From Acidobacteriota bacterium (GTDB lineage Bacteria > Acidobacteriota > UBA6911), in contig OY761556.1 of the NCBI GenBank assembly GCA_963664705.1, forward strand, positions 3,648,001 to 3,712,000: a stretch of 64,000 nt of DNA, in the 5' to 3' direction. The notes below the pieces were generated by a model. It searched no databases. It was not told the DNA's origin and saw only the letters and a list, made by a program, of their open reading frames with translations. The stretch's first letter is position 1; every line of letters starts with the position of its first letter. Shown here one piece after another: positions 1,710 through 59,087 of this stretch. A program made the position numbers and the translations under genes.

Positions 1710-2345
1710 CTACGAGCGGAATTGCGGAAGCGATTTTCCCTGGAACAGACCGATGCCGGCAATCCCCGCGGCACCGGCTTTGAGTACAGAGTCCCTCCGC
1801 TCCGGGGTGATGCCGCCCAGTCCCAGAACTGGCACATTGGAAGCGGCACAGGCATTCCTCAGCCGGCGCAAACCGAGCGGCGCCCCAAAGCCCGCTTTGG
1901 ACTCCGTTGGAAAAATGTGTCCGACCAGCAGGTAGTCCGCACCCTGAGCGCATGCGCTTCGAATTTCAGACAGAGTGTGGACCGAGACCCCGATCAGGAA
2001 ATCATCCGGAACCCATTTGCGGATGTCATCAATCTGAAGGCCTTTTGAAGGAAGATGAACTCCGTGGGCCCCGGCTGCCAGCGCAATATCGGCGCGGCCG
2101 TTTACGAGGACGCGGCATTGCGTCAGGTTTGCATGGGCCAGCGCCCCGCGCGTCAATCCAAAAATCGTGCGGTCATCCAGATCCTTTTCCCGGATTTGAA
2201 CAAAATCGACGCCACACTCTATGGCTCTGTGGATACACGCCATCAGGGACATTCCGGACAGGCGCTTCCGGTCGGTAATGTAGTAGAAAAGCGGACGCCT
2301 AGATGGAAGGGTGCTTTCTTTTCCAGTTGTTCTTGATTTGTACAA
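1710..2345 (-). CDS. thiE: Thiamine phosphate synthase (ThiE/TenI family); start uncertain
   Basis: YYITD, VQIREKDL, GAHGVHL, GVSVH, GADY...FPTESK, LGGIT motifs; nearest in-frame initiator upstream of YYITD is TTG 2345. Confidence 0.8.
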   Translation of the reverse strand: MYKSRTTGKESTLPSRRPLFYYITDRKRLSGMSLMACIHRAIECGVDFVQIREKDLDDRTIFGLTRGALAHANLTQCRVLVNGRADIALAAGAHGVHLPSKGLQIDDIRKWVPDDFLIGVSVHTLSEIRSACAQGADYLLVGHIFPTESKAGFGAPLGLRRLRNACAASNVPVLGLGGITPERRDSVLKAGAAGIAGIGLFQGKSLPQFRS

Positions 2346-2634
2346 CCTCGTGAATCCCGATCGCGATATTGGCAATACCCAGCCCCATAACAAAGCCCTT
2401 GAAGAAAGCATTGGAGACCAGCGGCCGGAATTGGGGATACAGGTATAGCAGGTAGTTGTTTTCCCAGGACCTCATCCAGGGCATGAAAAGCAGGAGCATT
2501 CCAAGCTCGAATGAGGCCAGAATATAGATGAAATAAAGGGAGACCCACAGCCACCCGACAATTCGGGCAAGCGTAATACTCCCACCCTTTGGATCCGTCT
2601 CTGCGGGAGGAGTATCTGTAATTCTAGGGTGCAT
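2299..2634 (-). CDS. Small hypothetical membrane protein (2-3 TM)
   Basis: Hydrophobic ORF (FELGMLLLFMPW..WENN..GFVMGLG) overlapping both neighbours in operon style. Confidence 0.7.
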   Translation of the reverse strand: MHPRITDTPPAETDPKGGSITLARIVGWLWVSLYFIYILASFELGMLLLFMPWMRSWENNYLLYLYPQFRPLVSNAFFKGFVMGLGIANIAIGIHEVVQIKNNWKRKHPSI

Positions 2635-5344
2635 GCCTTTCAGAACCACTCTTGGGGCCTGTCGATCCGCAGGCCTTCAATTCATCAATCTTCTGCGCTA
2701 CATCGCGATAGCCCGGATCGATCCCGAAAATCTGACGAAAACACTCAAGTGCCCGATCCCGATCACCGGCCATTGAATGCGCGATTCCCATATCATAGCG
2801 GAGCGCCATCGATTCGTGGGAAGAAATATCTACAATTCCTAATCCGGTCTGGCACCATCGAAGGGCTGAACTGGGCATTGCCTTCTTCAGGTAGCAGGTA
2901 CTCAACATGCCGCAACACTGAATGATACGCGATCCTTCCTTCTTCAGATCAGCAATTTTCAAGGCAAACTGAAATTCTTTGATCGCCTCTTCCGTCAGTT
3001 CCATATCGCGGTATGCCGTTCCCAGGCTGAAATGGTCCTCGAACGATTCCCGCAGCACTTCCTGATCGGAGACCGCGCCGAATTCCTCCATCAGATCCGC
3101 AAACATTTCGTTGGCCGGAGTGCTGTCGATCGCCGAAACAGGAGCAGGAACTGGAGCCGGTGTAGCAATAACCTGCGGAGGGACGATCGCGAAACCGGCA
3201 GAAGCCGGCATCGGGGTCGGCGCAGAGGGTCTTTCTTCCGGCATTTCGAATTTATCTGCGCTGAATACATCGAGGTTGTCGAGAGTCTCGGTCAGATCCA
3301 AGTCGTCAAAGACTCCGCTCAAATCCTGAGAAGGCGGTTCGGCATGCTTCCCGAAAAGGGGAGCTTCTTCCGAGACAGTGGATACTGTCATGGGGTTTTC
3401 AGATGGCGCCGGCGCGCCCAACTTTTCGTATCGTGAAATGACCTCAGAATCGGTGGGATGGATTTTGGCTATTTCATTCAACTTGGCGAGAGCTTCTTCA
3501 CTGAATCCGAGGCGGATGTAGAAATCGACTTCCTGCAACTGCTCTTCAAGCGATTTGGCAGCGCTAGCCGAAGACAAATCCTGTGGGTAGGCTTCGGGTA
3601 TTGATCCATGCGCATCCAGGGATTCCTGGTCCGGCTCGCCCTCTTCACCCTCCGCTTTATCGTTTGAGAAAAAGATATCCAGCAGGTCTGACGAAAGATC
3701 AACTTCGGCTTCCCCATGCTGCATCTCGCCCGAAGCAGCGGGAGCCTCCGGCTCAATGCCGCTGCGGCGCGCGAATCCATCCAGATCTTTTTCATATTCC
3801 TGAACGTCAGGAGATAGTTGCTTTGCTTCGGACAGGCAGCTCAACGCCGCCTCTTCATTGCCGGAACGGCGATGCAGAACCGCCAGAAGCAACAACTGCT
3901 CGGCAGCTTCGGTATTTTTATTTTCGAGCTTGAATATGGAAACCAGGCGAACACGGACTTCCCTATCATAGGGGTCGCGCATTTCCAAGCCTTGAAGCAG
4001 ACCCAGCGCCTTTTCCTTCAGGCCGTAATTGAGCAGCAGGTCGGCTTCCACGATTTCGGGCGAAACTTTGGCTTCGGGAGCCGCATGCTCTCGTCGCTCC
4101 ACGGGAGATCCGGGAGCAATGCTGATTTCCGGCGGCTCGGAAGGGGCCACATACGGCGTATCCGGATAGACTTCGGCAAAGATCTCCCGATGAAGTCTAC
4201 GGTGTTTTGCGCTCTCGGGGTCTGCGTGGAGAATCTTTTCCAGGTACTCCAACGCCTCCGCCGGGCTTTTCTTCTCGATATAGTGATCCGCTATGCTGTC
4301 CAGCAGGGCTACATAGCGAATCTGGTCGCCGGTAGCAGAACAGACAGATGCCAGCTTCACCATTGTGAGGATGTGGCCGGGCTCGCGCTGTAGAACATCC
4401 TGATAGAACTGGACCGCACGTTCGGTCTCCCTGCGCGTTATCAGAATGGGGACGATATCATCAAGGGAGGAGGTTGCCCGATCATATTCGCCTTGTTCCA
4501 AATAGGACTTGGCAACGTCGAAGAAATTGCCGTATCTCGAGTCATCCATCGACAGTACTGTCTGGAAGACCTTAACCGCCGATTCAGGATCTTGATTGGC
4601 AAGGTATGCCTGCCCCAGTAGTTCCCGGAAATCCAGGTTGTCCGGAGCCGACTCGACGGCTTGCTTGAGCTGGTTGAGCGCGGGGACAGGCGTGCTTAGC
4701 TTCAGGCAGCAGTCCAGATAGCCTCGCATGGACTCGACATCCTGCGAATTGAGAAGAACCGCATGATGGTAGGAATCCGCGGCACCCTGGATATTACCGG
4801 CTTTCCCCATTGCACGGGCGGCACCGATCCAATGGGAGCGCGATTTTTCACTGGCTCCTTCAGCCAGGTAAAGCTCGGCCAGTTTTCGCTGGATAGCAGC
4901 ATTGGAAGGATCGATCTCAACCACCTGCTCGTAGGCATCCATCTGCTCCCGCGCCCGGCCTTCTTTTTCAAACAGCGCCGCAAGGCGCAGATACTGGTTT
5001 TTCGCATCGATACTCAAACCCTGCTTCGCATAAAGCGATGCCATGGTTGAGTTGATATCCAGATTGTTCGGGTCGGCGTTGAGGATTTTTTTGTAGACGG
5101 CGATTGCTTTGAGGAAGAAGTTGTTCTGAACGTAGTTCTCAGCCACCTGATTGAAGTACCGGTTGGCCTCAGTGCTTTTGCCCTGCCGCAGGTACAGATC
5201 GCCGATGGTATTGAGTATGAGAACGTCGTTGGGATCGAACTTTACAATCTTGAGATATTCGCCGATAGCCTGCGGAACCTTACCGTGGAGCACGTATCTT
5301 TCGGCGTCTTGAAGAAATTTTGCCTTGCTATCAGCGGCCACCAT
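2624..5344 (-). CDS. Large tetratricopeptide-repeat protein with acidic/Pro-rich linker
   Basis: Multiple TPR-like helical repeats at both termini; AGGAGG SD before ATG 5344. Confidence 0.85.
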   Translation of the reverse strand: MVAADSKAKFLQDAERYVLHGKVPQAIGEYLKIVKFDPNDVLILNTIGDLYLRQGKSTEANRYFNQVAENYVQNNFFLKAIAVYKKILNADPNNLDINSTMASLYAKQGLSIDAKNQYLRLAALFEKEGRAREQMDAYEQVVEIDPSNAAIQRKLAELYLAEGASEKSRSHWIGAARAMGKAGNIQGAADSYHHAVLLNSQDVESMRGYLDCCLKLSTPVPALNQLKQAVESAPDNLDFRELLGQAYLANQDPESAVKVFQTVLSMDDSRYGNFFDVAKSYLEQGEYDRATSSLDDIVPILITRRETERAVQFYQDVLQREPGHILTMVKLASVCSATGDQIRYVALLDSIADHYIEKKSPAEALEYLEKILHADPESAKHRRLHREIFAEVYPDTPYVAPSEPPEISIAPGSPVERREHAAPEAKVSPEIVEADLLLNYGLKEKALGLLQGLEMRDPYDREVRVRLVSIFKLENKNTEAAEQLLLLAVLHRRSGNEEAALSCLSEAKQLSPDVQEYEKDLDGFARRSGIEPEAPAASGEMQHGEAEVDLSSDLLDIFFSNDKAEGEEGEPDQESLDAHGSIPEAYPQDLSSASAAKSLEEQLQEVDFYIRLGFSEEALAKLNEIAKIHPTDSEVISRYEKLGAPAPSENPMTVSTVSEEAPLFGKHAEPPSQDLSGVFDDLDLTETLDNLDVFSADKFEMPEERPSAPTPMPASAGFAIVPPQVIATPAPVPAPVSAIDSTPANEMFADLMEEFGAVSDQEVLRESFEDHFSLGTAYRDMELTEEAIKEFQFALKIADLKKEGSRIIQCCGMLSTCYLKKAMPSSALRWCQTGLGIVDISSHESMALRYDMGIAHSMAGDRDRALECFRQIFGIDPGYRDVAQKIDELKACGSTGPKSGSERHAP

Positions 5345-5433
5345 GCCCTCCTGCAATCAAATATGGTGCAAACTATCCGAAGTCCGCCGATAACAAGGCA
5401 AGAATTGCTTGAACGCTCCCAGAGCTGGCGCCT

Positions 5434-5811
5434 TTAGGCTTTGGCTGCTCTTTCGGGTGCGCGCTCGATTCTTCCTACCTCTTTCAACCGGGCAGCTTTG
5501 CCGCGGCGGCCTCGGAGATAATACAGCCGCGCTCGGCGCACTTTTCCGCTCTTCACCACTTCCAACTTTTCAATAATTGGCGAATGCAGAGGGAAAATAC
5601 GCTCGATGCCATATCCAAACGAAACCTTCCGAACTGTGAAGGTTGACGAAATGCCGTTATTCTTCTGAACAATAACGACACCTTCAAAAACCTGGATCCG
5701 GTACTTGTCCCCTTCCTTGATCTTTACGTGAACACGTACCGTGTCTCCTGGACGGAAGCGGGGAAGATCGGTCCGAATTTGGGAATTATCGACTGCCCGT
5801 AGCAAATCCAT
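5434..5811 (-). CDS. rplS: 50S ribosomal protein L19
   Basis: [25 protein letters not shown]; synteny with trmD. Confidence 0.98.
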
Positions 5812-7880: not shown

Positions 7881-9218
7881 CTACATCTGAGGGAATTTCA
7901 TCCCGCGCATCAGGCGAGGCATAATCCCCTTGCTCAAGCTGCGCATCATCTTGCGCGTTTCCACATACTGCTTGAGCAATTGATTGATCTGATTCACCGG
8001 CCTCCCGCATCCGCGGGCAATCCGCTTTCGCCTGCTGCCGTTCAAAATCGAATGGTTGCGCCGCTCTTCCGGGGTCATCGAATTGATGATTGCCTCGATG
8101 TGAACCAGCTCCTTCTCATCTACCTTCATCTGGTTCAATCCACGCAGAGGCCCCATGTTGGGAAGCATCCCAAGGATCTGATCCAAGGGGCCCATCTGCC
8201 GGATCTGCCGCAATTGATCGCGAAAATCATCAAGGGTAAACTCATCTTTTCGGATCTTCTCGGCCAGTTCAGCCGCCTGCTCCCTATCCACGGACTCTTC
8301 CGCTTTCTCAATAAGGGAAAGCACATCGCCCATGCCGAGAATGCGGCCAGCCAGGCGGTCGGGGAAAAACGGCTCCATAGCATCCACTTTTTCGCCGGTT
8401 CCGACAAATTTGATCGGCTGTCCGGTCACCGACTTGATAGAGAGCGCGGCACCACCCCTCGCATCGCCATCCATCTTCGTCAGGATCACGCCTGTCAGCC
8501 CCAGACGTTCGTGAAATTCCTTCGCGCTGCGAACAGCGTCCTGTCCCGTCATAGCATCGGAAACCAGAAGGATTTCCACCGGTGGCGTTGCTTTCCGAAT
8601 TCGCTCGAGTTCCACCATCATCTCATCATCAATATGGAGACGGCCGGCGGTATCGATCAGCACAACGTCGTAGCCGCTGTTGCGAGCATGTCGCAACCCC
8701 TGCTCCGCTCTCGACACGGGATCCATATCCCCAGGGACATCGAAATAACCCAAATGAGCGGCCTCGCACAATACGCGCAGCTGTTCAATGGCCGCAGGAC
8801 GGTAGACGTCCACCGACAGCAGCAGCGGCGTATGGTTGTTTTTAGTAAGCCAGTGAGCCAGCTTTGCCGTGCTGGTCGTTTTCCCGGATCCCTGAAGCCC
8901 AACCATCAGAAACACACTGGGCGGCTGCTTGGAAAATTGAAGCTCCGTCTGCGATCCACCCAGCAATTCAATGAGCTCGTCGCGCACGACCCGGATAATT
9001 TGCTGGCCGGGAGTCAGAGATTCGAGAACTTCCTGGCCCAAAGCCCGCTGTTTGACGCGCTCAACGAAATCCTTGGCAATTTTGAAATGAACGTCCGCGT
9101 CAAGCAGCGCGTTTCGTATTTCCCGGGCGGCCTCTTCTACGTGGCGGCTGGAAACTCTTCCTTGCCCCGTCAGGTTTCGCAGAATTTTCTGCAGCTTATT
9201 CGATAAATTATCCAGCAT
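7881..9218 (-). CDS. ffh: Signal recognition particle protein Ffh
   Basis: GLQGSGKTT, DTAGR, TKMDGDARGGAALS, M-domain SRRKRIARG. Confidence 0.98.
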   Translation of the reverse strand: MLDNLSNKLQKILRNLTGQGRVSSRHVEEAAREIRNALLDADVHFKIAKDFVERVKQRALGQEVLESLTPGQQIIRVVRDELIELLGGSQTELQFSKQPPSVFLMVGLQGSGKTTSTAKLAHWLTKNNHTPLLLSVDVYRPAAIEQLRVLCEAAHLGYFDVPGDMDPVSRAEQGLRHARNSGYDVVLIDTAGRLHIDDEMMVELERIRKATPPVEILLVSDAMTGQDAVRSAKEFHERLGLTGVILTKMDGDARGGAALSIKSVTGQPIKFVGTGEKVDAMEPFFPDRLAGRILGMGDVLSLIEKAEESVDREQAAELAEKIRKDEFTLDDFRDQLRQIRQMGPLDQILGMLPNMGPLRGLNQMKVDEKELVHIEAIINSMTPEERRNHSILNGSRRKRIARGCGRPVNQINQLLKQYVETRKMMRSLSKGIMPRLMRGMKFPQM

Positions 9219-23434: not shown

Positions 23435-23525
23435 TTTTGCAGTGGCTCCTCGCAGCAGCGTGGATGGCAAAACCTGAAAACTTGAAACTTGCATCGCCAG
23501 GCAGCGCTTGTGCTATCTTTTTTGC

Positions 23526-25160
23526 ATGAAAATAGCATTGGCGCAGGTAAACACGGTTGTCGGGGATGTTGGCGGCAATCGCGACCGCGTGCTCGGAATC
23601 ATGAAAAAGGCAAGGTCTCTGCATGCAGATATCACTGTTTTTCCGGAATTGTGCCTCACGGGGTACCCACCGCGCGACCTGCTTGGAATGCACGGTTTTG
23701 TCGAGCTGAACCTTCAGGCACTTCAGGACATTGCATCCCAAACAGATAAAATGGGTGTCGTCCTCGGTTTTGTCGACCGCAATCCGAACCAAGAAGGTCG
23801 CGATTTCCACAATTCTGCAGCCTTTCTCGCCGAAGGAAAAGTTCAGGCGGTTGTCCACAAAACGCTTCTCCCGACCTACGATGTTTTCGATGAAGACCGT
23901 TACTTCCAACGTTCAGATCGCGTGGAGGTTGTGCGCTTCCGCGGCCGCACGCTAGGAATTTCGATTTGTGAAGATGCCTGGAATTCGGAGGACTTCTGGC
24001 CCAAACCTCTGTACGCCACGGATCCTATACGGAACCTGATTGAAAAAGGAGCCGACCTGCTCATCAACATTTCGGCATCGCCGTTTGAGATAGACAAGCC
24101 GAAACTCCGATACAAGATGCTGCAGGATCACGTTCAGAAGCATCGAGTTCCGCTCGTATATGTCAACCTGGTCGGAGGAAATGACGATCTCCTCTTCGAT
24201 GGCAATAGCCTCGTTCTTGGCAAGAATGGGAATGTAATCGCCCAAGGAAAGAGCTTCGAGGAAGACCTCCTGATCGTCGATTCAGAAACACAGGAAGACA
24301 GGGGGTACCGCATGGGGGAACCGCTGCAGGACCTCTTTCGTGCCCTTGTCATGGGAACCGCGGATTATGCAGGCAAGTGCCGTTTTACTACCGCGGTTCT
24401 CGGGCTCAGCGGCGGCATCGATTCATCCGTTGTAGCCTGTATCGCAGCGGAAGCATTGGGACCGCAGAATGTAATGGGAGTGTCCATGCCCTCCGTGTAC
24501 TCCGCACAGGAAAGCTTCGACGATGCGCGCGCGCTGGCAAATAACCTGGGAATCCGATTCGAGTCCATTCCCATCCGCCCGCTGTTCGATCAGTTCGAAA
24601 ATTCCATGGCACCCCTATTTGCAGGACATTCTCCGGATGAAACGGAGGAAAACCTGCAGGCACGGATTCGCGGAACCATCCTCATGGCCCTATCCAACAA
24701 ATTCGGACATCTCGTTCTTGGTACAGGAAACAAATCAGAATTATCTGTCGGGTATTGTACCCTTTACGGTGATATGGCGGGCGGCCTGGCCGTGATTTCG
24801 GACGTGCCCAAAACGATGGTCTACCAACTGGCCGGGTTCATCAACAGAAAGAGAGAAATCATCCCACGAAACGCCATCGCACGCCCTCCTTCAGCGGAAC
24901 TGCGACCAGACCAGACCGACCAGGACAGTCTACCCCCATATGAAATTCTGGATGGCATTCTGCACCTGCGGATCGAAGAACAGAAGAGTTTGGATGAAAT
25001 CATTTCCGACGGCTATGAACGGAGCGTCGTCGAAAAAGTCGCTCGCCTGGTTCATATCAATGAATACAAGCGAAGGCAAGCTGCAACTGGATTGAAGGTA
25101 ACGACTCGGGCATTCGGAACGGGCCGGCGAATGCCGATTGCATCCATAGTCAGTATTTAG
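23526..25160 (+). CDS. nadE: Glutamine-dependent NAD+ synthetase
   Basis: Nitrilase domain (FPEL, ICEDAW) plus LSGGIDS, ENLQARIRG, GNKSE, GY.TLYGD, PPSAEL. Confidence 0.96.
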   Translation: MKIALAQVNTVVGDVGGNRDRVLGIMKKARSLHADITVFPELCLTGYPPRDLLGMHGFVELNLQALQDIASQTDKMGVVLGFVDRNPNQEGRDFHNSAAFLAEGKVQAVVHKTLLPTYDVFDEDRYFQRSDRVEVVRFRGRTLGISICEDAWNSEDFWPKPLYATDPIRNLIEKGADLLINISASPFEIDKPKLRYKMLQDHVQKHRVPLVYVNLVGGNDDLLFDGNSLVLGKNGNVIAQGKSFEEDLLIVDSETQEDRGYRMGEPLQDLFRALVMGTADYAGKCRFTTAVLGLSGGIDSSVVACIAAEALGPQNVMGVSMPSVYSAQESFDDARALANNLGIRFESIPIRPLFDQFENSMAPLFAGHSPDETEENLQARIRGTILMALSNKFGHLVLGTGNKSELSVGYCTLYGDMAGGLAVISDVPKTMVYQLAGFINRKREIIPRNAIARPPSAELRPDQTDQDSLPPYEILDGILHLRIEEQKSLDEIISDGYERSVVEKVARLVHINEYKRRQAATGLKVTTRAFGTGRRMPIASIVSI

Positions 25161-25259
25161 TGGGCGGTGGGCAGTGGGCAATGGGTGGTTAAGTTGACAA
25201 ATAGAGATTACCAATCTTTGACTTGAATACTGCCGACTGCCGACTCAAGGAGAGATAAC

Positions 25260-26696
25260 GTGTTTACGAGAGCTTTGCTTACCGATTTCTACGAACTGAC
25301 AATGGCGGCAGCCTATCTTGAACAGGGGAAAGCAGCCGACACCGCAACCTTCGACCTCTACTACCGGCACAACCCCTTCAACGGAGGGTATGGAATTGCC
25401 GCTGGTCTTGAGGATGCTGTCCGCGCCGTCCTGGACACTGCGTTTGGCAAAGATGATCTTCAGTTCCTGAGATCACTGAAATCCTCGACGGGCGCGCCCG
25501 CTTTTTCGGAGGACTTCATTCAATATCTTGCAGCCTATCGTTTTAGCAGCAATATCCGTGCGGTTCCGGAAGGTACCGTCATATTCCCGAATGAACCAAT
25601 CGTACAGGTTAGCGGCAACCTGATGGAATGCCAACTGGTCGAGACCATTCTGCTGTGCCACGTCAACTTTCAGACTCTCGTGGCAACCAAAGCAGCCCGT
25701 ATATGGGAAGCCGCCAATCACGGCACCGTCATCGAATTCGGGCTGCGTCGAGCGCAGGGGCCCGACGGCGCTTTGAGTGCATGCAGAGCGGCCTATGTTG
25801 GAGGCGCGGATGCCACTTCAAACGTTCTCGGCGCCGCAATGGCCGGGATTCCGGCGCGTGGCACCCATGCCCACAGCTGGATACAAGCCTTTGGCTCTGA
25901 ACTTGATGCGTTCAGGGCTTATGCCCATTCGTTTCCGGATGATTGCACGCTTCTTGTCGATACCTATAACACGCTGAAAAGTGGTGTGCCGAATGCCATC
26001 AAGATTGCGAAGGAGCTTGAATCCAAAGGACGACGACTTGCAGGCATCCGAATTGACAGTGGGGATTTGGCGTTCCTGAGTGCCAGATCCCGTCAAATGC
26101 TCGATGATGAAGGATTGCCTTACGTAAAGATCGTCGCCTCCAATGAACTGGATGAATTTATCATCTCTGACATCCTGGCGCAGGGCGGAAAAATCGACAT
26201 CTGGGGCGTCGGCACAAATCTTGTAACCGGATCCGGTCCCGGAGGCTGTGCCTTGGGCGGCATTTACAAAATGGTGGAGCACAATGGCCGGCCCAAAATC
26301 AAGCTGAGCTCCAATCCGGAGAAAATGACAAATCCCGGCGCAAAAAGGGTGGTCCGATTTCATGACCGGGACGGTTTGATGGATGCCGATGCTTTGGCCG
26401 ACCAGTCCGAAGATCTGCGCAGCGCGGAAGTGCTCATCATCGATCCCAACAATCCGCTGCGTCGTAAAAGATTGAATTCGGACAAGCGGGTAGAATTGCT
26501 TCAGCCTGTTGTCGTATCCGGGCAGAAGGTCGGAGAATTTCCTTCGCTGGATCAGATTCGCAGCCACCGGATGGACCAACTGGCGCACCTGCACGAGAGC
26601 CACCGTCGACTTCACAATCCGCATGAATACAAGGTCGGGCTCACGCATGTTTTGTGGCAGCAGAAGGAAAATATGCTGAACCAGGAAACTGTCTAG
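25260..26696 (+). CDS. pncB: Nicotinate phosphoribosyltransferase
   Basis: LLTDFYELTM, EFGLRRAQG, GTHAHSW, LVDTY, RIDSGDL. Confidence 0.96.
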   Translation: MFTRALLTDFYELTMAAAYLEQGKAADTATFDLYYRHNPFNGGYGIAAGLEDAVRAVLDTAFGKDDLQFLRSLKSSTGAPAFSEDFIQYLAAYRFSSNIRAVPEGTVIFPNEPIVQVSGNLMECQLVETILLCHVNFQTLVATKAARIWEAANHGTVIEFGLRRAQGPDGALSACRAAYVGGADATSNVLGAAMAGIPARGTHAHSWIQAFGSELDAFRAYAHSFPDDCTLLVDTYNTLKSGVPNAIKIAKELESKGRRLAGIRIDSGDLAFLSARSRQMLDDEGLPYVKIVASNELDEFIISDILAQGGKIDIWGVGTNLVTGSGPGGCALGGIYKMVEHNGRPKIKLSSNPEKMTNPGAKRVVRFHDRDGLMDADALADQSEDLRSAEVLIIDPNNPLRRKRLNSDKRVELLQPVVVSGQKVGEFPSLDQIRSHRMDQLAHLHESHRRLHNPHEYKVGLTHVLWQQKENMLNQETV

Positions 26697-30289: not shown

Positions 30290-30586
30290 ATGATTTTTTC
30301 AGTGGATACTTGGCTGTTGCCGGCAATTGCGGCAGGCTCATCCTCCTACCTGGTCTGCCTGGCATGGGAACGAATCAGGACAAGCACTGCACCAAGTGGC
30401 CGACTCTCTGCCTTTTTGGCTGGCCTGAGCTTTGTCATGGGAGCCATTTGCGCCTATTACAGGCATACAGTCTTTGGGCCAACCCTCGAAAGCAACGTCA
30501 TTATCATGTTTATTGTGGGCGCCAGTACAACGTATTTCTGGCTACTGCTCAGAAAGTATTTTCCCGGCTTCAAACGCAGAAGCTAG
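30290..30586 (+). CDS. Small hypothetical membrane protein (3 TM)
   Basis: 98-aa hydrophobic ORF; TGgTACAAT promoter at 30256-30264. Confidence 0.6.
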   Translation: MIFSVDTWLLPAIAAGSSSYLVCLAWERIRTSTAPSGRLSAFLAGLSFVMGAICAYYRHTVFGPTLESNVIIMFIVGASTTYFWLLLRKYFPGFKRRS

Positions 30587-30603: not shown

Positions 30604-30812
30604 CCTTAGGATGTATATATAAATGCACAGGATCGCTAACAGTGTATATTGATGGATAGTGTGGAATGGAGTGCAGAATGTGGCGCGCGGGACGCAACAT
30701 GACAGGCGGTCCCCTCACCCGTGTAATCTTAACCGAGCGCTTCTCCGCCTAACACGAACGCCCCACGCATATGCACTTGTGAATCCGATGTACATATCGT
30801 CTCACCCCAAGG
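30604..30812 (-). ncRNA. Candidate structured ncRNA (~210-nt rod-like hairpin with asymmetric central bubble)
   Basis: Nested stems 30604-13/30803-12, 30623-33/30783-95 and 30671-30776; about 10 mismatches are A-C on + and so G-U on -. Confidence 0.55.
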
Positions 30813-30925
30813 AATGTTTAGCTGTTATTTATCAGTTTCTTAACCCAATCCAATCCCGTATTGACTTGCGCATCGGGCGATACTTACAATGAAAAGTAAT
30901 ACACAGCTCGATGAAAGGATATCTT

Positions 30926-31183
30926 ATGCCGAGTGACCGTCGCAGGATATTGGAATTGGCGCTGGAATCGCTACAAAACCAGCGTAAAAGGCTGGATGAG
31001 GAAATCGCTGAGATTGCCCGTGAGATCCGGGGCGGATCCACACGCTCATCCGGAGTTGCCGTAAAAACAGCTGCTCCGGCGCGCTCCCGCAAATCATCTC
31101 GGTTTACAAAAGAGGAACGGCAGAAAAGATCCGCACGGATGAAGGCCTATTGGGACAACTGGCGGAAGAAGAAAAAACAGTAG
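30926..31183 (+). CDS. Small basic coiled-coil protein (putative nucleic-acid-binding)
   Basis: AAGGA SD; TTGACT-N18-TACAAT promoter at 30861-30890; basic C-terminal helix RSARMKAYW. Confidence 0.75.
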   Translation: MPSDRRRILELALESLQNQRKRLDEEIAEIAREIRGGSTRSSGVAVKTAAPARSRKSSRFTKEERQKRSARMKAYWDNWRKKKKQ

Positions 31184-32616: not shown

Positions 32617-32678
32617 AAGTTTTTGGCCCCAAATTGGGCCAGTTTTTTAACCCCCATATATGCTCATAATGAGCATAA
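32598..32678 (+). promoter_or_regulatory. Two NadQ-like palindromic operators (32598-32618, 32658-32678)
   Basis: TATGCTC-ATAAT-GAGCATA has perfect 7-bp arms; TTATGCTC-AAGCC-TAGTATAA is a near copy 60 bp upstream. Confidence 0.7.
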
Positions 32679-32691
32679 CGAGGTTAGGCTG

Positions 32692-33735
32692 GTGGAATTA
32701 AAGAAACAAGAAGAAAACACAAGTGCAAGGACGCCGGTTTTGACTCCGGATATCCTGCAGGAAACCGCATCCATTTACGAGCGCGTGCGCCACATCATCC
32801 CCGCAATGGAGTGGCCGGTGCATGCCCCGTATGTCTCGGCCATCCTGCGGTTGAAAAACGAACGCAAAGCCGTCATCCTGGCCCATAATTATCAGACGCC
32901 GGAGATCTTTCACGGTGTTGCGGACATAACGGGAGACTCCCTGGCCCTCGCCCGCGAAGCTTCCAAAATTGATGCCGATATCATCGTCCTGTGCGGAGTT
33001 CACTTCATGGCCGAGACTGCCAAGCTGCTGAATCCGAGCAAGACGGTGTTGATCCCCGACCTTGAGGCCGGCTGTTCGCTGGCTTCATCCATTACGGCGG
33101 AAGACATACGCCTCCTTCGGCAGCAGTATCCGGGCGTCCCGGTGGTCACTTATGTAAACACCTCAGCGGCTGTTAAAGCGGAGTCGGACATCTGCTGCAC
33201 TTCTGCCAACGCCGTGCGCGTCGTAGAATCGCTGGATTCCGATCGAGTCATTTTCCTCCCGGATGAATTTCTGGGACGCTATGTTGCCTCCCAGACCAGA
33301 AAAAAGGTGATCCTGTGGAAGGGCCACTGCGAAGTCCACGAAAAATTCACCGCGCAAGATCTGCGCAGCTATCGAGAGCAATTTCCTGAAATCGTTATTC
33401 TTGCGCATCCCGAGTGTCCGCCCGATGTTCTGGCCGAGGCCGATTACGTAGGTTCTACGGCAGGCATGATCGATGAGGTAGGAATTCGCAGACCGCGCCG
33501 CGTGCTGATGGTCACCGAATGCTCAATGAGCGACAACGTCGCGGTGGAGTATCCAAACATCGAGTTTGTTCGTCCCTGTAATCTCTGCCCGCACATGAAA
33601 CTGATCACCTTGCCAAAAATTCTCGAATCCCTGCAGTCGATGAAGCACGTTGTCGAAGTGGATCCGCTGATCGCCGATCGTGCACGGCAGGCTGTGCAGC
33701 GAATGCTTGAAATTGGATCGAAACCGGTGCGCTGA
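32692..33735 (+). CDS. nadA: Quinolinate synthase
   Basis: [41 protein letters not shown]; GTG with GAGG SD downstream of operators. Confidence 0.96.
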
Positions 33736-33737
33736 CC

Positions 33738-34628
33738 ATGACCTATAACTCTATCCCGCATCTTCTGCCTCCATACCCGATTCTATATGAAGAAACCGTT
33801 CGCCGCGCCTTGCTGGAGGATCTCGGCCGGGCCGGAGACGCAACGACAGATGCGATCGTTTCGTCAAAAGACACGGCGCTCGCTTTGATTGAAGCGCGCG
33901 GTCCCGGACGCACGGCCGGCATTCACATTGCCGAATGCGCTTTCCATTGTCTTGACGCCGGGTTGACCTTCGAAGCGCTGATTCCTGATGGTCAGGACGT
34001 TGATGCGGGATTCACGCTGGCGGTTATTCGTGGCTCGGCTCGCCCGATTCTATCAGCCGAGCGCACCGCCCTGAATTTCTTTATGCGTCTGTCCGGAATT
34101 GCCACGGTGACTCGAGATATTGTGCGACGGATTTCCGCATATTCCGCGCAGGTTGTCTGCACGCGAAAAACAACTCCGGGGCTCCGCGCTCTTGAAAAAT
34201 ACGCAGTGCGTGCCGGTGGAGGATCAAACCATCGCTTCGGACTTGATGATGCCGTTTTGATCAAAGATAACCATATCGTTGTCGCGGGGGGCATTTCAGA
34301 AGCAATTCAGCGGGTCCGCCGCCATGTCGGCCACATGGTCAAAGTTGAGGTGGAAGTCGACACACTCCAGCAATTGGATGAGGCTCTCAAGGAAAAGGTC
34401 GATGCCGTCCTGCTCGACAACATGCCGGTTGCCACACTTGCCGAAGCGGTGCGAATTACCGGCAAAAGGGCTATCACGGAAGCATCCGGCGGGGTCACAC
34501 CCCTGACAGCAGAGGCAATTGCCGCTACGGGCGTGGACCTGATTTCGATTGGATGGATTACTCACAGCGCCCCTGCATTGGATCTAGCGCTGGACTTCAA
34601 GCCGCAGGCATCGGTCAATGCCCTGTAG
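33738..34628 (+). CDS. nadC: Nicotinate-nucleotide pyrophosphorylase (carboxylating)
   Basis: ERTALN, CTRKTTPG, NHRFGL, LIKDNH, EVEVD, LLDN, EASGG. Confidence 0.97.
   Translation: MTYNSIPHLLPPYPILYEETVRRALLEDLGRAGDATTDAIVSSKDTALALIEARGPGRTAGIHIAECAFHCLDAGLTFEALIPDGQDVDAGFTLAVIRGSARPILSAERTALNFFMRLSGIATVTRDIVRRISAYSAQVVCTRKTTPGLRALEKYAVRAGGGSNHRFGLDDAVLIKDNHIVVAGGISEAIQRVRRHVGHMVKVEVEVDTLQQLDEALKEKVDAVLLDNMPVATLAEAVRITGKRAITEASGGVTPLTAEAIAATGVDLISIGWITHSAPALDLALDFKPQASVNAL

Positions 34629-59012: not shown

Positions 59013-59087
<75 letters not shown>

Follow-up and report, generated by a model that had tools for sequence, protein, structure and literature searches.

The locus examined here, the minus strand of positions 30604-30812 in a 64,000-nucleotide stretch of Acidobacteriota DNA (the window), raises the question of whether a rod-shaped RNA is encoded there and, if so, where it begins and ends and what it does. 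The initial annotation had proposed a structured RNA of approximately 210 nt, to be read as a divergent 6S-like RNA, a new sRNA class or a self-silenced small-peptide mRNA. We conclude that the locus contains a real RNA gene, previously uncatalogued, that is smaller and differently bounded than this annotation held. The conserved 88-nt element is very probably expressed as a non-coding RNA. Our main reading, to which we assign a probability of roughly 0.6, is that of a sigma-28-driven, tRNA-ended, protein-binding RNA that would serve a part of the sigma-28 programme other than the flagellum. The features of the locus are listed in Table 1.

Table 1. Features of the RNA locus and its immediate surroundings (window coordinates).
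Feature	Position	Strand	Basis
Sigma-28-type -35 box TAAA	30817..30820	-	sequence; motif upstream of 43/44 genomic and 87/89 metagenomic copies
Sigma-28-type -10 box GACGATAT, spacer 15 nt	30794..30801	-	motif common to both flagellin genes and flgM; contains the AUG of the initial annotation
Predicted 5' leader, ending U(-3) A(-2) U(-1)	30769..30787	-	start site placed at ~30786-30787 by prediction
88-nt rod RNA in its predicted mature form, from G(+1) through the CCA end	30681..30768	-	fold, covariance model, covariation
Acceptor-like 7-bp stem, 5' strand	30762..30768	-	pairs 1-7 kept in 43/43 distinct rows
Acceptor-like stem, 3' strand, and unpaired G-CCA	30681..30691	-	NCCA in 41/44 genomic and 87/90 metagenomic copies
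Near-invariant 5' segment: AGAAG (30744-30740) and 5' strand of apical G-U-rich stem	30732..30746	-	per-column counts
Invariant 3' segment: 3' strand of apical stem and AGGGGA (30715-30710)	30708..30721	-	per-column counts
Convergent 98-aa hydrophobic protein gene	30290..30586	+	context; adjacent in 43/44 loci
Divergent sigma-70-type promoter of upstream basic 90-aa ORF (30911-31183)	30861..30890	+	context

Boundaries, distribution and structure of the 88-nt element

The minus strand of the 209-nt region folded at -75.5 kcal/mol (z = -3.12; 2 of 200 shuffles were as good), and the plus strand gave z = 0.35, which answers the folding check that had been proposed for both strands. All stems found earlier by manual pairing (closing, second, long inner and apical CGCUCG/CGGGUG) and the purine-rich internal loop were present in the minimum free energy structure of the minus strand, where 11 of the 62 pairs were G-U, in line with the approximately ten counted before. 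The 209-nt fold is thus real. Its unit was wrong, as the conserved feature comprises only the inner 88 nt. This core (30768-30681) yielded z = -4.41 on the minus strand and z = +0.8 on the plus strand. When the core was fixed and the flanks were shuffled, 37 of 500 controls folded equally well, and chance alone can therefore account for the outer stems. Pairs between the two flanks numbered 30 here and 28 in one other of the 44 homologues, at most 14 in the remaining 42, and zero in 20; by alignment the flanks of the core are unrelated among relatives, and the conserved unit measures 83-96 nt among copies. The closing stems do not hold as an RNA feature: their 5' arm (30812-30803) is promoter spacer, and the flank pairing is unconserved. 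The AUG at 30795, taken as a start codon, lies inside the -10 box and upstream of the predicted transcription start.

These boundaries bear directly on two of the three earlier readings. A 210-nt divergent 6S RNA would draw on the stability of the 209-nt fold. However, the unit is 88 nt long and has no central bubble, the Rfam 6S model (RF00013) had no match at E<=10 in the region, and the genome's one match to that model is a canonical 6S RNA elsewhere (G000:1247726-1247909, 79.4 bits) that adjoins ymdB/zapA/zapB. A fold-back-silenced small-peptide mRNA would draw on the same fold, on the 26-codon ORF, which does exist, or on an ORF that starts at the NUG found at positions -2 to +1 of all 44 copies (ATG 34, GTG 7, TTG 2, CTG 1). 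The 26-codon ORF starts in the -10 box and the stems that would bury it are unconserved; its start position is an ATG in 31 of 43 homologues, from which reading frames run for 1 to 100+ codons and share no peptide. Depending on the copy, the NUG ORF runs into the invariant block in any one of the three frames (23/14/7), and it spans 4-72 codons, and it was rejected as a conserved start. No conserved small hydrophobic ORF with a sequestered Shine-Dalgarno site, as in a type I toxin mRNA, was found. With outer stems that are unconserved and within chance and ORF lengths that scatter, we regard both readings as extremely unlikely.

A covariance model built from 21 copies of the core (R1) gave a single match in 44 of the 51 genomes of the family (this genome and 43 of 50 others), one match in 25 of the 29 other genomes of the genus, and no match in 86 genomes from other families of the class. 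When 40 relatives were searched at the DNA level, matches came from 20 of the 24 that belong to the genus and from none of the 16 others, each time in the inner part only. The family carrying the RNA is likely UBA6911: when 185,579 genomes were scanned for an exact pattern, there were 36 matches, all labelled Acidobacteriota, Acidobacteria or Terriglobia, one of them UBA6911. In metagenomes the pattern was found at no fewer than 120 loci, 100 of which were put to the model and 90 matched. A second covariance model, run on 151 genomes of the phylum, matched only this genome, one family member and G210 (E = 0.046). The last was rejected as a distant homologue and attributed to chance; it keeps the loop letters and lies antisense in a 265-codon gene, without promoter or outer stem. 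Eight viral pattern matches lacked the family's stems, and a syntenic search in sister families by way of the 98-aa neighbour protein gave one match in 31, a chance one that contains stops. Rfam 15 showed no family above its gathering cut-off over the RNA, and searches at gathering and E-value level yielded tRNA-Gly and chance matches alone; on 16 metagenomic loci it gave no match at E<=1. No prior description of the 88-nt RNA was found in the freely readable literature or in Rfam.

Seven of the 51 family genomes had no RNA match (G003, G007, G008, G013, G118, G124 and G130). The contig of G124 breaks at the expected position, and G118 is the sole RNA-negative genome in which the locus is intact. 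In G003, G007, G008 and G013, all FliA-positive and flagellated and two of them rated 99-100% complete, the 98-aa neighbour protein was not found; the neighbour pcm was not found at E 1e-40 in G003, G007, G013 and G130. Absence of the RNA from G003, G007, G008 and G013 is likely an assembly gap, although the RNA may have been truly lost, for instance in G003 or G013.

The rod begins with a terminal stem of 7 bp, beyond which pair 8 is frequently mismatched; next come a middle helix that varies and a short G/C helix. Its far end is made up of the purine-rich internal loop (5x6), a 6-bp stem in which two pairs are G-U, and an apical loop that is variable and AU-rich. Across 43 distinct genomic rows 92.1% of cells pair and 15 of 28 pairs change on both sides, a value reached by none of 500 shuffles; in controls in which the structure was slid, 35-53% of cells pair, and covariation was 0.255 for the real register and at most 0.085 for the slid ones. 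Ninety metagenomic rows gave two-sided changes in 16 of 28 pairs. These figures come from alignments (A3 and A5) fitted to the model's own structure, with rows from related genomes that are not independent of one another, and the antisense shadow of L111 was left out of the genomic one (A3). Pair 2 swaps from C-G to U-A in 10 of 43 genomic and 18 of 90 metagenomic rows, and pair 8 is broken in 20 of 43 and 59 of 90, respectively. Read on the minus strand the alignment holds 168 G-U cells against 12 A-C cells, and this excess settles that the RNA belongs to the minus strand. Of the three earlier readings it is the new sRNA class on this strand that gained support, from a conserved and covarying core without an Rfam match.

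Conservation is strongest in the far part of the rod. All six pairs of the apical stem are constant in the 43 rows and hence carry no covariation support; in the metagenomic set this stem was the search pattern, so that its constancy there is built in. The 3' segment is identical in all 44 copies save for a single additional G and a single site at which two copies have U. The two invariant segments would take 13.7 and 14.6 kcal/mol to open; the apical loop is free to vary. Buried invariant bases next to a free apical loop suggest, in the modelled fold, the pattern of a protein site and not of a seed. Attempts to read the loop by eye, from the consensus sequences, as a K-turn or in the register of the SRP loop failed, either on the key G, which is not constant, or on the apical stem, which such a register would disrupt. 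A search of the genome for a second copy of the loop motif gave none that was convincing (a repeated look-alike sits in a multi-copy ORF), and for mimicry of or complementarity to rRNA the best matches of the 88-nt RNA were 9 nt long with E>1.

Sigma-28-type promoter and tRNA-like ends

A motif of the type TAAA-N15-GCCGATA, which we take to be the sigma-28 consensus, precedes nearly all genomic and metagenomic copies (Table 1), and the genome encodes FliA. With a matrix derived from 20 other copies of the RNA, the window promoter ranked 1 of 13,789,696 sites. With a matrix trained on 20 of 33 flagellin upstream regions, all from other genomes, it ranked 18 of 13,789,694, close to the two flagellin genes (2 and 7) and flgM (16) of this genome, which are preceded by the same motif. 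The top-200 threshold of the flagellin matrix was passed by 38 of the 44 homologues, and by none in either set of 44 controls, the downstream one or the opposite-strand one. Transcription of the 88-nt RNA is, on these motif rankings, very probably sigma-28-dependent. Another conserved stretch behind a sigma-28-like promoter (L295:1-520 and L296:1-520) was considered as a sister RNA and rejected, since it reads as a short ORF; this ORF is convergent to a conserved 790-aa gene, and its copy at G000:C1 ~978500-978700 seems to change frame.

The leader is short and unfolded in the window. In 37 of 43 homologues (e.g. L004, L012 and L015) it runs to 40-70 nt and contains an A-rich stretch as well as a hairpin whose sequence is not conserved; this long hairpin leader is missing here. 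At the other end, at least five U in the 9 nt 3' of the CCA were present in only 16 of 44 copies.

Both ends of the core resemble those of a tRNA. All 44 genomic copies have U(-1) and G(+1) and 41 encode NCCA, 3 being without it; among 90 metagenomic copies the counts are 90 and 87. The discriminator base is G in 31, A in 10 and U in 3 of the 44. When members were picked by the inner core only, with the register set automatically and slips counted as misses, U(-1) was present in 43/44 genomic and 89/92 metagenomic members, U(-3) in 43/44 and 90/92, A(-2) in 33/44 and 67/92, and NCCA in 40/44 and 81/92. The tRNA genes of the host share the U(-1) bias in weaker form (27/52), and the genome has a type A RNase P RNA. 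To our knowledge, few chromosomal bacterial RNAs beyond tRNA, tmRNA, SRP RNA and Y RNA carry signals for both RNase P and CCA. The substrates listed in PMC10731613 agree with this scarcity; there, bacterial RNase P is described as preferring U at N(-1), pairing with a 3' RCCA and having A(-2)U(-1) as its optimum, and as cutting pre-SRP and C4 RNA, in which a continuous helix replaces the T loop. The 88-nt RNA is thus probably matured by RNase P and left with a CCA end.

Such ends could also mark a tRNA mimic with a functional CCA, either an aminoacylated minihelix serving a non-ribosomal transferase or an uncharged decoy that occupies a tRNA-binding protein. The 7-bp stem that is usually broken at pair 8, the G1-C72 pair and the encoded NCCA (41/44) fit this reading, and the first pairs resemble those of the tRNA-Arg and tRNA-Gly of this genome. 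However, the discriminator (G 31, A 10, U 3) and the swaps at pair 2 leave synthetase identity inconstant, there is no G3-U70 pair and no T, D or anticodon arm, ARAGORN makes no call, and the strongest conservation lies at the opposite end of the rod. We consider a tRNA mimic quite unlikely. Two full-length tRNA-Sec genes were observed in the genome (G000:C1 3078215-3078309 and 6559014-6559112), with a short third call at 1625651.

The gene arrangement points to another possible role. In 43 of 44 loci the gene of the 98-aa neighbour, a protein that is family-restricted and highly conserved (341 relatives, no Pfam family over cut-off), runs convergently towards the RNA, its stop lying 7-534 nt from the CCA and often 7-35 nt. 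The mRNA of this hydrophobic membrane protein, for which there is a weak holin-like lead (score 0.80), must overlap the RNA at its 3' end, and both genes are confined to the family; the RNA could then be a cis-antisense RNA of the type I antitoxin kind. Against this, the protein persists in G118 (76% identical), where the RNA is missing, the RNA of G121 has no such protein gene close by, and the gap reaches 534 nt. Antisense pairing would require neither an invariant loop nor CCA or RNase P signals, and the leader hairpin, tested as a terminator of the neighbour, favoured neither strand (23 vs 23 of 43). A cis-antisense role is in our estimate very unlikely. On the other side of the RNA, the basic 90-aa ORF has a coiled-coil-like start and an Arg/Lys/Trp-rich end; it falls in unnamed clusters commonest in Acidobacteriota, and its family stands beside the RNA in 29 of 44 loci. 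Further out in the window, 23508-26696 and 32623-34628 (plus strand) hold NAD biosynthesis genes (nadE and pncB by family search, nadA/nadC by inspection), and a tRNA-Gly(GCC) gene lies at 59013-59084 (plus strand).

Flagellar loss and candidate modes of action

FliA was matched in 48 of the 51 family genomes. In the two RNA carriers without a match fliA is cut or frameshifted, so that all 44 carriers have fliA; the match in the RNA-negative G130 is a 51% paralogue. Flagellin and FlgI were both missing in the same 15 of 51 genomes, and 13 of these carry the RNA. CsrA was missing in 18 of 51, including these 15; among the 44 RNA carriers it was not found in 16, 13 of them non-flagellated. The 13 non-flagellated carriers keep fliA in place, and their structural genes and full-length flhF are deleted with differing breakpoints (in G045 and G123 one side of the fliA locus ends at a contig edge). 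The RNA core is intact in 13/13, the CCA in 11/13, and the promoter scores above threshold in 10/13.

These genomes are G016, G020, G011, G045, G001, G006, G043, G042, G015, G023, G019, G123 and G132, and the deletions, in which a flagellar cluster of ~50 kb was lost repeatedly with breakpoints that differ, are found at loci L278-L294 and L325-L332. Spared are fliA in 13/13, an flhG-like gene in 12/13 and a divergent sigma-54 activator in all 12 that are covered; flgM is kept in 7/13, as a fragment in one more, and was not found beside fliA in 5/13. The labels flhG, fliM, flhA and 'FleQ-like' were given from position and inspection, family searches yielding only sigma-54 activator and MinD-like. 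In a rough neighbour-gene tree of 44 rows, with bootstrap support unsettled and G121 left out because it lacks the gene, the non-flagellated carriers fall at about seven places, three of them within starred clades. The loss in G042 is very recent and says little; that in the clade of G011, G016, G020 and G045 is older. In G118 both fliA and the sigma-54 activator next to it are gone, and the RNA is missing from a locus that is otherwise intact; the co-loss of fliA and RNA rests on this one genome. Elsewhere in the class 20 of 86 genomes have FliA without the RNA; FliA alone is therefore insufficient for its presence.

Judged by gene content, the 13 genomes keep the flagellar regulatory cascade without a flagellum. 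Repeated loss of the cluster that spares fliA and the RNA amounts to a natural genetic experiment and shows, as far as sequences can, that selection maintains a task of sigma-28 other than the flagellum in this family. The deletions also remove CsrA, FlhF and flagellin as explanations of the role of the RNA, and they provide a filter for its partner.

Sigma-28-type promoters were also observed before genes for PilZ, DUF5658, CAP, polysaccharide export, pilin-like, EAL/HDOD and HD-domain response regulator proteins (G000:C1 3934941, 3404813, 614673, 6010675, 3728643, 4420261, 4733724, 3853910 and 2077211), and four of these promoter-gene links recur in non-flagellated genomes. As such promoters stand before genes of c-di-GMP and polysaccharide functions and before pilin-like ones, the most likely setting is a switch of lifestyle.

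In the mechanism that we propose, FliA polymerase would transcribe a precursor, RNase P would remove the leader by a cut between U(-1) and G(+1), and 3' trimming would stop at the encoded CCA, as in pre-SRP RNA. The resulting stable rod would offer its invariant purine-rich loop and G-U-rich apical stem to a protein, as decoy or scaffold, during the switch from motile to attached life. That protein binding is the mode of action appears somewhat more probable than other modes, given the modelled structure. Since the RNA is kept in non-flagellated lineages, its partner must be kept there too. CsrA, FlhF and flagellin mRNA, absent in the 13 carriers, are thereby excluded as sole partner, as is Ro60, which occurs in 3 of 51 family genomes; FlbT and a second M domain were searched for in the genome and not found, and are excluded as sole partner as well.

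The same genomes weigh on two further proposals. The RNA could act as a sponge for CsrA, or it could serve FlhF, the SRP-type GTPase of the flagellum, in the manner of an SRP RNA, as CsrA, FliW and FlhF are encoded in this genome, the internal loop has one invariant GGA, and size and ends resemble those of SRP RNA. The 13 non-flagellated carriers, however, have an intact core with no CsrA match and no full-length flhF at the locus, the SRP model does not match the RNA, and the genome encodes an SRP RNA of its own together with one Ffh-like M domain. Both proposals are highly improbable.

A trans-acting sRNA that pairs with mRNAs through the invariant segments as seeds would agree with the known sigma-28 sRNAs, which act by pairing (PMC10578931 and PMC11187230), and invariance without covariation fits a seed too. 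In target prediction one flagellin gene ranked 157 of 5,659 for one segment. The rod, however, holds each segment closed at a cost of ~14 kcal/mol, and it is the variable apical loop that is exposed; ranks of 1,714-5,630 of 5,659 (crude gene starts, one genome) were obtained for fliA, flhG, the second flagellin and the sigma-54 activator, flagellin is gone in 13 carriers, and the U-rich tail after the CCA occurs in only 16 of 44 copies. We judge pairing in trans improbable.

FliA is the only tested protein that is present in every carrier, and this opens the possibility of an anti-sigma RNA that would be made by FliA polymerase, gain stability from tRNA-type processing and use the invariant loop to bind FliA, alone or in the holoenzyme. 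Such negative feedback would need no FlgM export, so the RNA would survive flagellar loss and vanish with fliA. FliA-dependent transcription accounts equally well for the co-occurrence of FliA and RNA, and an anti-sigma role is unlikely. If true, it would make the RNA the first 6S-like regulator known to us that is dedicated to an alternative sigma factor, at half the size of 6S.

Comparison with known RNA classes

At the coarsest level the 88-nt RNA is a small structured bacterial RNA, from a family that is uncultured, which limits genetics. The UBA6911 preprint (10.1101/2021.04.09.439258) reports flagellar genes in two genera, and its main text contains neither 'non-coding' nor 'sRNA'. With 6S, Ms1 and CoRP RNA, which bind RNA polymerase (PMC11077062), the element shares an intergenic position, a single copy, a rod-like shape and a conserved structure. 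Those RNAs measure ~180, 300 and 500 nt, whereas the present one has 88 nt and no central bubble.

Like bacterial SRP (4.5S) RNA and phage C4 RNA, which RNase P cuts although they are not tRNAs (PMC10731613), it is a rod of ~90 nt with U(-1)/G(+1), NCCA, a continuous helix where a T loop would be, and a conserved internal loop near the apex. The 88-nt RNA has, at the level of sequence signals, SRP-type ends on a T-loop-free rod. Unlike SRP and C4 RNA, it has no Rfam match and no conserved tetraloop, follows a sigma-28 promoter and is confined to a single family. It lacks the helix-8 motif and the covariance score of SRP RNA (RF00169), a canonical copy of which is encoded elsewhere, and the covariance model R2 did not match the SRP locus. 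As for a dedicated M-domain partner, only one Ffh-like M domain was found in the genome, and FlhF is absent in 13 carriers. Two related observations were made: a second, weak match to the SRP RNA model at G000:C1 991470-991567 (L024; 26.8 bits, under the cut-off of 40), and an ffh-like gene, named from motifs only, at window 7881-9218 (minus strand).

With tRNA and tmRNA the element shares the 7-bp acceptor stem with NCCA. It has no cloverleaf or T arm, ARAGORN and Rfam make no such call, tmRNA is encoded elsewhere, and a constant aminoacylation identity was not found, as the discriminator and pair 2 vary. Bacterial Y RNA (YrlA; PMC4201824) forms a class of 80-130 nt with a tRNA-like part recognised by RNase P and the CCA enzyme. 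The 88-nt RNA differs in having no GNCGAAN0-1G motif, no D and T arms and no adjacent Ro60; of the 51 family genomes 3 have the TROVE domain (Ro60), and the present genome is not among them. Sponges of the CsrB/RsmZ type carry several loop GGA motifs. Here one invariant GGA was found, and 16 of the 44 RNA carriers gave no CsrA match.

UhpU, MotR, FliX and FlgO, which are sRNAs of E. coli (PMC10578931), and C. jejuni CJnc170/FlmR (PMC11187230) have a FliA promoter, which is predicted here too and present at motif level, and are Hfq-bound or base-pairing regulators of flagellum synthesis. Unlike them, the 88-nt RNA is a closed rod with tRNA-like ends and buried conserved bases that survives deletion of the flagellum, and prediction in one genome gave no accessible conserved seed with conserved targets. 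As read from its sequence, the 88-nt RNA joins sigma-28 control with tRNA-type ends and falls outside each known family with which it was compared. It likely represents a new class of sigma-28-driven, tRNA-ended RNA, which motif lists outside Rfam could already hold. The printed sigma-28 sRNAs that we found act by base pairing on flagellar synthesis, and it is from this pattern that the 88-nt RNA departs.
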